DNA from: Alphaproteobacteria bacterium
Lineage (GTDB): Bacteria; Pseudomonadota; Alphaproteobacteria; Bin95
Direction: 5' to 3'
Assembly: GCA_964291285.2 (NCBI GenBank)
Contig: OZ219785.1
Span: forward strand, 608,001 to 672,000
Length of the DNA: 64,000 nucleotides
Of the stretch, positions 31,976 through 33,568 are shown one piece after another. The position numbers and the translations under genes are program-made. Position 1 is the stretch's first letter. Each line of letters begins with the position of its first letter. Below the pieces are notes generated by a model. It was not told the DNA's origin. It saw only the letters and a list, made by a program, of their open reading frames with translations, and made no database searches.

Positions 31976-32206
31976 AGGCCGGGGCGGGCCCGGAACGGTG
32001 AGAAGCGGGCAGGAGCCGGTCGCCGGCGGAAATTTGTTCGTGTTTTATGATTTATTTCTAGATTGGCACTTGACATATAGCGGATTGTGATATGATGGTC
32101 CCCAGGGAAGCGGTATCCGGAGCCGCGTCCCCGGGTGCTGCGCGGCCGAGCGGCGCCATTTTTGAAAACCTGCGAGAAGCCGACGGGAGAGCGACTGTGT
32201 TGTCGG

Positions 32207-33139
32207 TCAAGCTGTTTTCCACGGGGTTCGGTCTCTGAGGATAGCGTTGAGGATTGTGAGGAGCTTTCGTGTGACGGCGGTGAGGGCAGCCTTTTTGGTT
32301 TTTCCCTCCGCGATCAGGTGGCGATAGAAGCGTTTGAGGGTTGGGTTATGCCTGGAGGCGGTGAGGGCAGCCATGTAGAGGGTTGCGCGGACGTTGGCGC
32401 GTCCTCCCCATATGGTTCTCTTTCCGCGCATGGTTCCGCTGTCGCGGTTGAAGGGCGCGACGCCGACGAGCGCGGCGATGCGCCTTCGGCTGAGGGTTCC
32501 GAGTTCGGGGAGATCGGCGATCAGGGTTCGTGCGGTGGCGTCACCGACCCCGGGAACGCTTTTGAGGAGGTCCTCGGCCTGGCGCCATGCGGGGGATTTG
32601 CGGATCGCATCGCCGAGCTCGGTTTCGAGGTCGGAGAGTTCGCGTTGCAGGGTGGCGAGCACGCGGTCGACGCTGCGGATCGTGCGACGGCTTGTGAGGC
32701 GCCTCCTGCGGTTTCTCTCCGCGGTCATCATCGCGACGATCTGGCGCCGCCGGGCGACCAGCTCGGCGAGCGCGCGGGCCTGCTCGTCAGGCACCGGACG
32801 GGGCTCGGGATGGACCGCCTCGGCGAACTGTGCGATCGCCGCCGCATCGAGGGCGTCGGTCTTGGCGAGCCGGCCGGTGGCGCGGGCGAAGTCCCGGATC
32901 TGGCGCGGGTTGACCACCGCCAATGGCAGGCCCGCCGCGCAGAGCGCCGCCGCGACCGTGACCTCGAAGCCGCCCGTCGCCTCCAGCACCACGAGGGCAA
33001 CCTCCAGCCCGCCCAGGCGCGCCGACAACTCTTCCAGGCCTTTGCCGTCGCGCGCGACGGCAAAGGCCTCCCCGGACGGGCGCAGATGCACGTCCAGACG
33101 ATCCTTCGCCACGTCGATGCCAACGAATATCCGTTCCAT
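32207..33139 (-). CDS. IS110 bridge recombinase
   Basis: GIDVAK, LEATG, KTDALDA (DEDD RuvC-like), SVPGVG, DSG, GGR..VR..LYM. Confidence 0.95.
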
Positions 33140-33313
33140 GTCCCGTCCTTGCAAATGCGGTCTCACACTGCGGACCAAGCGACTGTTCGGGTTCAAAGGA
33201 ACAGCGGACGGGGAACCATGCTCTCCCGCGGTCTTCATAACCTGGGTGCTAGCGGTCTCCCGTCCGCTCCCGCTGTTGCGACTATAGCTGCAACAACGAT
33301 CCGGAGAGATACA
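33140..33313 (-). ncRNA. Predicted bridge RNA in the IS110 left non-coding end
   Basis: Two stem-internal-loop modules containing ACAGTCGCT/TGCAAG (donor guides) and GCGGGAGAG (target guide). Confidence 0.8.
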
Positions 33314-33568
33314 AGGTGTGTCCGCACCTCGCGCGCGCAATCAGGCGCGCGAGCCGCGCCGGCGCCGACACGCGCCCGCGCGGGATACGCGCGGAAAAGG
33401 GACCCGCTCCCGTCCGCAGAAGGAGGAACGATGAAACAACCGAGCCCTGCCGCCGGGACCTTTGCCGAAGCCTGGGCAGTGGACATGAACGCCGCGAAGC
33501 CGCAGGTGCCGGCGGGCGGAGCGTTATGCCCGGATGGATCACGGAACATGCCCTACACGCATGCAGAA

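Follow-up and report, generated by a model that had tools for sequence, protein, structure and literature searches.

A stretch of 64,000 nucleotides (nt) from an alphaproteobacterial genome (GenBank assembly GCA_964291285.2, contig OZ219785.1, positions 608,001 to 672,000; the whole stretch is called the window below) was found to contain an insertion sequence of the IS110 group on its minus strand, and it is very probable that this element is intact, has been active recently and moves by bridge-RNA-guided recombination like IS621. We determined its anatomy and boundaries, the structure of its RNA and the correspondence of the guides in this RNA with target and donor alike. The element is a clean further example of an RNA-guided system that is already known, and the sequences point to an asymmetric reading of its target, namely four bases to the left of a CT core and five to six bases to the right of it (LT4-7 + CT + RT1-5(6), where LT and RT denote left- and right-target positions, LT7 and RT1 being next to the core). 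This asymmetry is seen throughout the clade of related elements and has already been reported for ISPpu10 (preprint 10.64898/2026.03.19.712850).

The host genome (G000; five contigs, 6.1 Mb, 68% G+C) holds 13 copies of the element, which are 100% identical over the part that each of them retains (up to 1126 base pairs (bp)) and have the same end bases and different flanks. Nine of the copies are uninterrupted; in three, other insertion sequences split the left end, and a further one is cut where one of these three is interrupted. The open reading frame (ORF) of the recombinase is open in all 13. The copy in the window amounts to a net insert of 1124 bp with a CT core at each end (32190-33315; Table 1). 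On the minus strand, its left junction (33322-33306) reads GACACAC-CT-TGTATCTC, the terminal TGTAT starting at 33313, and its right junction (32198-32184) reads ACAGTCG-CT-CTCCCGT, its core occupying 32191-32190. A single CT is seen in free paralogous sites, the sequence of which is ..GCGCAC-CT-CTCCTG.., and the orthologous intergenic locus is empty in three congeners, two of which (G007 and G006) read GCGCAC-CT-CTCCCGTCGGCTTCTC and the third (G014) GCGCAC-TT-CTCCTG. The CT core is thus single in the empty site and present at either junction of the insert (13 copies), as is characteristic of the IS110 group, and in the clade the left flank ends in CT in 73 of 75 elements. Since the CT is single in empty sites, the element consists of 1124 bp plus a duplicated CT, as a preliminary description of this DNA had proposed; every coordinate and boundary given there proved correct on the minus strand. 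It is hardly credible that the copies were spread by duplication or recombination of a host repeat rather than by transposition: several flanks are indeed paralogous copies of one repeat, but the flanks vary by copy, eight of the 13 are not located in that repeat, and three congeners have an empty orthologous site, with a join that is precise to the base.

The architecture of the element is that of an IS110-group transposon in the remaining respects, too. The recombinase contains the Pfam domains PF01548 (DEDD_Tnp_IS110; E = 3.4e-24) and PF02371 (Transposase_20; E = 4.2e-20), i.e. a DEDD RuvC-like domain and a Tnp domain with a catalytic serine as in the IS110 group, and matches the NCBIfam model NF033542 ('IS110 family RNA-guided transposase') with 222.9 bits at a cut-off of 140. 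In phmmer searches it matched the structures of IS621 (8wt6; E = 1.5e-38, 136 bits) and ISCro4 (9t56; E = 2e-38). Residues D9, E53, D95, D98 and S234/G235 align to IS621 D11, E60, D102, D105 and S241/G242 (the numbering of the structure chain is offset by two relative to these published residues), mutation of which abolishes recombination in IS621 (PMC11208158). The gene is preceded by a non-coding left end of 174 nt from the core to the ATG (33313-33140) and followed by a short right end, in which 15 nt separate the stop codon from the right core CT; a long non-coding left end and a short right end, without terminal inverted repeats, are again what is expected of this group.

For the analysis of the left end, a protein-guided scan of the GTDB representative genomes was used, which yielded 80 orthologous loci with 61-93% identity. 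At 74 of these, a left end with TGTAT was located 165-230 nt ahead of the start codon, which together with the window copy gave 75 elements; L075, L083, L095, L103, L121 and L122, which have no such left end, were dropped. The consensus fold of the 60 distinct leaders (alignment A1), calculated with RNAalifold, consists of two successive modules built alike, the first being a long stem around an internal loop with an apical stem. The 5' stem-loop is missing from this consensus because that stretch aligns poorly. In the A1 structure, 96.8% of the cells are paired compared to 85.4% in shuffled alignments, compensatory changes occur in 14 of the 27 pairs, and none of 500 shuffles equalled any of the five measures applied. 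When the partners were slid against each other, pairing fell to 33-48%, and the covariation score was 0.350 for the structure, 0.143 for the shuffles and 0.036-0.123 for the slid controls. The two stem/internal-loop modules that the preliminary description had seen in the window copy are hence borne out by covariation in 60 leaders, and the check that it had suggested, folding of 33313-33140 and scoring with a covariance model, gave a fold z of -2.6 and 158 bits with model R1, which was built from A1. As judged from these alignments, the 174-nt left end carries the layout of the IS621 bridge RNA, which has a length of 177 nt and in which a 5' stem-loop precedes two further stem-loops, each with an internal loop (PMC11208160).

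Model R1 finds elements in five of the 17 genomes of the genus and, in the host genome, only the 13 copies and one orphan target-binding module (L152/L138; contig C1, 7926-7987, minus strand; R1 positions 47-109, E = 3.9e-7). The guides of this orphan are unlike those of the 13 copies; it is located just past the stop codon of a gene and has neither a 5' stem-loop nor an intact donor module nor a recombinase gene. We considered a conserved, possibly domesticated RNA and rejected this idea, as R1 finds the module in the host genome only among the 17 genomes of the genus; for the same reason it is probably a remnant of a related element.

The guides were assigned by the rule established for IS621, according to which left guides have the same sequence as the top strand and right guides pair with it, both spanning the core (PMC11208160). 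All four guides named in the preliminary description were recovered where it had placed them, including GCGGGAGAG at 33229-33221 and TGCAAG at 33153-33148 of the minus strand (see Table 1 for the guides as delimited here). The last base of the left target guide CTAGCACCC is a C and stands against the T of the core. On the donor side, the variants ACAG, ACGG and ACAGC of the donor loop change jointly in the guide and in the right end (70 elements); an exception is the pair L109 and L115, which have identical leaders and form one row of A1. The donor sequence presumably resembles that of IS621. Pairing of the right donor guide is discontiguous beyond GCAAG, as it is in IS621, where 9 nt of the guide pair discontiguously with 7 nt (PMC11208160). 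The handshake concept at position 7 (Hiraizumi et al., PMC11208158) fits the base after each right guide: a C in the target loop, which can pair with donor G7, and a G in the donor loop, which can pair with target C7. The C beside the right target guide is invariant in A1 and donor position 7 is a G in 70 of 70 right ends, while the target position 7 (LT7) is a C in 12 of 12 own sites and in 95% of the clade sites.

Table 1 Features of the IS110-group element in the window (positions of the 64,000-nt stretch).
Feature	Position	Strand	Basis
Whole element including the CT core at both junctions	32190..33315	-	13 copies ending at the same bases; single CT in orthologous empty sites
Left CT core copy	33314..33315	-	Own sequence, copy comparison, empty sites
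Right CT core copy	32190..32191	-	Own sequence, copy comparison, empty sites
Left target of the window copy, GACACAC	33316..33322	-	
Right target of the window copy, CTCCCG	32184..32189	-	
Left end, predicted bridge-RNA coding region, 174 nt	33140..33313	-	Fold z -2.6; A1 covariation; model R1 158 bits
5' stem-loop of the RNA	33270..33299	-	Single-sequence fold
Target-binding module (long stem, internal loop, apical stem-loop)	33203..33268	-	A1 helix 1, compensatory change in 12/14 pairs
Left target guide CTAGCACCC	33244..33252	-	Only GCAC and the first core C match sites
Right target guide CGGGAGAG	33221..33228	-	Complementary to CT-CTCCCG; own sites and clade covariation
Target-loop handshake positions CA	33219..33220	-	C can pair with donor G7
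Donor-binding module	33142..33191	-	A1 helices 3 and 5
Left donor guide ACAGTCGCT	33178..33186	-	Same sequence as the final 9 nt of the right end
Right donor guide ATTTGCAAG	33148..33156	-	GCAAG pairs with CTTGT (one G.T), remainder discontiguous
Donor-loop handshake positions GA	33146..33147	-	G can pair with target C7
Recombinase gene, 310 amino acids, intact	32207..33139	-	Pfam, NCBIfam, alignment to the IS621 structure
TTGACC, predicted -35 half across the circle junction, overlaps the stop codon	32205..32210	-	Fixed distance from the end
TATCTC, weak -10-like hexamer (putative)	33306..33311	-	17 nt from the -35 in the circle

The flanks of the 13 copies were compared with the target guides. 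The right flank is CT-CTCC in all of them, followed by C (nine copies) or T (four copies) at RT5 and by G (ten), C (two) or T (one) at RT6. Of the 12 known left flanks, all have C at LT7, 11 have A at LT6 and 11 have C at LT5, with G (eight), A (three) or C (one) at LT4; CAC-CT stands ahead of the element in ten of the 12, and when G.T wobble is counted as pairing, 11 of the 12 are able to pair with the guide over LT4-7. The first three bases of the left guide, CTA, are matched at LT1, LT2 and LT3 in one, none and none of the 12 sites, respectively. Since the T at RT5 and the A at LT4 (a T on the bottom strand) both oppose a G of the guide, both are G.T wobbles, and with these tolerated alternatives the effective site becomes [G/A]CAC-CT-CTCC[C/T]G. 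It is matched without deviation by eight of the 12 sites known in full; genome-wide, eight exact sites are occupied and five further ones are free. A site that matches the full 9-nt left guide plus CTCC does not occur in the genome.

These data bear on several predictions of the preliminary description. The preference for ...CAC-CT-CTCCCG that it had read from the window copy agrees with the other 12 copies (CT-CTCC in 13 of 13, CAC-CT in ten of 12). It had also held that sites without CTCTCCC would speak against its reading; nine of the 13 sites have this sequence and the other four read CTCTCCT, with the T opposite a guide G in a wobble position, so that this expectation stands with a qualification. 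Its view that the window copy is a partly mismatched insertion could not be upheld, as left-target-guide positions 1-3 (LTG1-3) match at chance level in all own sites as well as in the 57 pairs of the clade described below. Since the only deviation of the window copy (GACACAC-CT-CTCCCG) at the covarying positions is the wobble-compatible A at LT4, it occupies as good a site as any. The specificity is not unique either: the orthologue L113 occupies ..CCAC-CT..CTCCCGTCG with the right guide TGGGAGAG. Finally, the CCTCTCCCCGC hairpins, to which the preferred sites had been likened, are not the target: the motif occurs six times in the window compared to 5.2 expected, and none of the 13 insertions lies inside one.

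Covariation between guides and targets, which the preliminary description had proposed to look for in the flanks of copies and orthologues, was found across the clade at LT4-7 and RT1-5. For this purpose, 57 non-redundant pairs of element and site, with 41 distinct guide pairs, were compared under the IS621 rule. Outside the core, 521 of 741 positions match, compared to 1000 permutations that averaged 309.5 and never exceeded 357; figures of significance are overstated because kin are not independent, and the changes in guides and flanks are many and go in both directions. By position, the fraction of matches vs that in permuted pairs was 0.16 vs 0.24 (LT1), 0.28 vs 0.21 (LT2), 0.35 vs 0.24 (LT3), 0.61 vs 0.30 (LT4), 0.89 vs 0.51 (LT5), 0.93 vs 0.32 (LT6) and 0.95 vs 0.82 (LT7) on the left, and 0.98 vs 0.85 (RT1), 0.93 vs 0.54 (RT2), 1.00 vs 0.36 (RT3), 0.88 vs 0.37 (RT4), 0.98 vs 0.49 (RT5) and 0.19 vs 0.17 (RT6) on the right. 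In a blind scan of each loop column against each flank position in both senses, same-sense matches for LT4-7 and complementary matches for RT1-5 filled nine of the top ten places; the remaining place, rank 8, was unexpectedly taken by the LTG6 column, which matches RT6 in the same sense (z 7.5). The scan found no partner for left-guide positions 1-3, and covariation in the first loop is accordingly confined to LT4-7 and RT1-5. Other registers for positions 1-3 were tried, and a one-base shift gave 0.37-0.40 vs 0.17-0.34; it was rejected as a general solution, the gain being due to the subgroup L057-L068, the loop of which is offset by one base. In three Azospirillum-type elements (L108, L111 and L125), the fit of the left flanks to the left guide CCCATCT-CT is better if a bulge of one base is assumed (e.g. 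CCCATCCT-CT) than in register, which suggests that these elements use natural sites with an insertion or deletion relative to the guide. The idea that L055 is seated in a remnant of its own target loop was abandoned, as the similarity is no longer than ~15 nt.

A further source of information on target recognition is a dispersed intergenic repeat of ~140-240 bp, of which the genome has ~100 copies and in which five of the 13 copies of the element reside. It is not the CCTCTCCCCGC hairpin. In the window, it forms the flanks of the element at 32020-32189 and 33316-33480; another example is L135 (contig C3, 68301-69000). The repeat also occurs in congeners, carries a terminator-like hairpin on the plus strand (32134-32157, followed by a T run) and ends near the start of a small downstream ORF; an Rfam search with intact repeat copies gave nothing above chance. 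The survey of the repeat returned 100 BLAST hits at E <= 1e-5, with 83 unoccupied copies that span the target position. The exact site is present in three of these 83. Another 27 differ from it solely by a G for C at the first core base, and 12 have another core together with CTCC. In 21 copies the CT is kept and the difference lies in LT4-7 or RT1-4 (in 20 of them in RT1-4: CGCC, TTCC, CACC, GTCC or CGTC; one copy with a CT core reads GTAC at LT4-7), and the remaining 20 combine differences. Among the 88 repeat copies, five of the eight with the exact site are occupied and none of the 80 near-cognate others is.

The use of one repeat family by five of the 13 copies could also mean that the protein or the structure of the target repeat picks the site and that the complementarity between RNA and target is incidental. 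We regard this as very improbable. The target stem-loop of ISPpu10, which adds specificity there (preprint 10.64898/2026.03.19.712850), and the position of Reyranella-type orthologues just 3' of hairpins with varying stems would be in line with it, but guides and flanks co-change over 41 distinct guide pairs, eight of the 13 own sites are found elsewhere than in the repeat and have nothing but the 12-nt motif in common, and the variation at LT4 and RT5 is that which is permitted by G.T wobble. In addition, the reconstructed own sites (n = 12) fold no better than shuffled sequences (z -1.24 to +1.61), on the basis of which a target hairpin was rejected as a second determinant for the own sites. 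The Reyranella-type orthologues (L073, L077-L081, L084-L099 and L107) are a separate observation: they are seated two bases 3' of short hairpins, the stem sequence of which varies by site while the hairpin form is kept (e.g. GCGCTCC-TGC-GGAGCGC followed by TC-CT), and these hairpins recall the target stem-loop of ISPpu10.

For guided recombination as the mode of movement, the following course is proposed, in which the excised circle, the promoter at its junction and the exchange of strands at the core are taken over by analogy from IS621. Excision would yield a circle, the junction of which joins ACAGTCG-CT to TGTAT and would bring TTGACC of the right end to TATCTC of the left end, and the promoter thus formed would drive an RNA of ~174 nt as well as the recombinase. 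As sequence and covariation show, the donor loop pairs with the junction, ACAGTCGCT with the bottom strand and GCAAG.. with the top strand. The target loop pairs with the genomic site, where, in this element as in its clade, the left guide reads only the four core-adjacent bases (GCAC) and the right guide CGGGAGAG five to six bases of the right target (CTCC[C/T]G). The DEDD/Ser recombinase would then swap strands at the CT core and leave a CT on either side. The junction promoter is plausible on the basis of the conserved ends: in all 70 elements for which the right end was found, exactly 15 nt separate the -35 hexamer from that end, with TTGAC in 68 of them, and TAT(C/G)nn is present in the left end of all 75 elements. 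We further put forward, as a possibility that we ourselves hold to be doubtful, that in this alphaproteobacterial clade a 9-nt left target guide became a 4-nt guide, positions 1-3 being free to vary and at no point following the target, and that the length was made up on the right (4 + CT + 5-6). There may be some other use for the left-guide bases freed in this way and for the C.A mismatch at the second core base, e.g. a balance between insertion and re-excision or the accommodation of target hairpins.

Several results do not sit easily with an active bridge-RNA element. Other insertion sequences have disrupted the target-binding module in four of the 13 copies. Opposite the CT core, the left guide terminates in CC, and in IS621 pairing to both core strands is strongly preferred (PMC11208160). 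Left-guide positions 1-3 (CTA) are at chance, which leaves a part of the canonical 9-nt guide unexplained. The -10-like hexamer TATCTC is without the final T, and a consensus scan finds no promoter in the integrated copy. In the contigs of X1, X2, X4 and X5, neither a circle junction nor excision at the window locus was detected; two contig joints that skip 1137 positions were considered as excision events and rejected, as 14 other letters stand between the two sides and the joints correspond to paralogous copies of the repeat. An Rfam scan of window positions 31500-34500 at E <= 10 returned no bridge-RNA family and, besides a tRNA-Gly, nothing at gathering score. This tRNA-Gly (CCC; RF00005) is located at 33739-33813 on the plus strand, with the Rfam match spanning 33739-33810, ~420 bp from the left end of the element. 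A match to sX15, a small RNA of Xanthomonadaceae, at 33167-33281 on the plus strand, antisense to the target-binding module, scored 28.1 bits vs a gathering score of 55 (E = 0.056) and is probably due to chance.

The core mismatch of the left guide, the five exact sites that are still free and the four disrupted copies would also be in keeping with a genuine bridge-RNA insertion sequence that is now silent or crippled, its 13 copies being the product of one past burst and its activity being limited by the CC of the left guide and the weak -10. We consider this unlikely: the 100% identity of the 13 copies over up to 1126 bp points to very recent movement, nine copies are uninterrupted and the recombinase ORF is open in all 13, and orthologues with many copies likewise have a left guide with C at the second core position, e.g. 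ACGGTCGCC in 20 elements. An element that is intact and was recently active is thus the reading that we retain.

The four broken copies (L010/L016, L012/L015, L013/L014 and L011) are hit within 31 bp (element positions 47-77) by three different high-copy insertion sequences, and the duplications made by these are GAGCGGACG, CTAG and AGGTT. The insertion sequence that duplicates CTAG strikes a CTAG within the left guide, at the same base in two copies. Such clustering of interruptions in 31 of 1126 bp is unexpected if insertion is random, and the rarity of CTAG is the sole, partial explanation. The host genome is unusually rich in insertion sequences, with at least three other families that have more than 20 near-identical copies each.

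The genome can be regarded as a natural specificity experiment with 13 insertions, five free exact sites and 80 unused variants, ~60 of which differ only in the core or in RT1-4. This data set shows in vivo that the first core base and RT1-4 are indispensable, that G.T wobble is accepted at two G positions of the guide and that the three distal bases of the left guide make no detectable contribution. The agreement with the mutagenesis of ISPpu10 carries the rule to a distant clade, which aids the choice and design of compact guides. The picture of how bridge-RNA elements work is unchanged by these results; their value lies in a clean natural data set on target reading.

Compared to known systems, the element has every testable family feature of the IS110 group and, as far as can be judged from its sequence, works like IS621. 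A literature search found no paper on this element or its clade; ISfinder and the supplementary tables of Durrant et al. were outside the scope of this search. Membership in the IS1111 group (seekRNA-type), which belongs to the same recombinase superfamily, was considered and rejected: elements of that group are marked by long subterminal inverted repeats and a long right end (PMC11208160), and a guide RNA in the right end together with subterminal inverted repeats of 7-17 bp would be expected, whereas here the right end extends for 17 nt past the stop codon and all guide modules are on the left. ISCro4 and other bridge recombinases of the IS110 group have the same domain architecture as that of the element. 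With IS621 of E. coli (Durrant et al. 2024, PMC11208160; Hiraizumi et al. 2024, PMC11208158), the element shares the DEDD RuvC-like domain and the Tnp domain with catalytic serine, a left end of similar length (174 vs 177 nt) with a 5' stem-loop and two internal-loop modules, the CT core, the strand rule of the guides, the discontiguous right donor guide and the logic of the handshake at position 7. Both target a dispersed intergenic repeat, and a promoter split over the circle junction is predicted here as well. The two differ in the protein, which is distant as judged from the phmmer match, and blastn of the element vs complete E. coli genomes gave no match. They differ likewise in the target, which is 4 + CT + 5-6 here and 7 + CT + 2 in IS621 (right guides longer than that of IS621 have been described for some orthologues; Durrant et al., PMC11208160), in the end of the left guide (CC here, CU in IS621) and in the location of the site, which is a 140-240-bp repeat here and the REP sequence ATCAGGCCTAC in IS621. 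A GC-rich stem-loop 5' of the target, on which ISPpu10 of Pseudomonas putida (preprint 10.64898/2026.03.19.712850) depends, has no support at the own sites of this element, and the asymmetry of ISPpu10 was measured by mutagenesis, whereas here it was deduced from natural sites. In target reading itself the two elements are alike: the right guide is strict over five positions with wobble tolerated, the left guide is permissive distally and strict beside the core, and many copies of one intergenic repeat have been entered.

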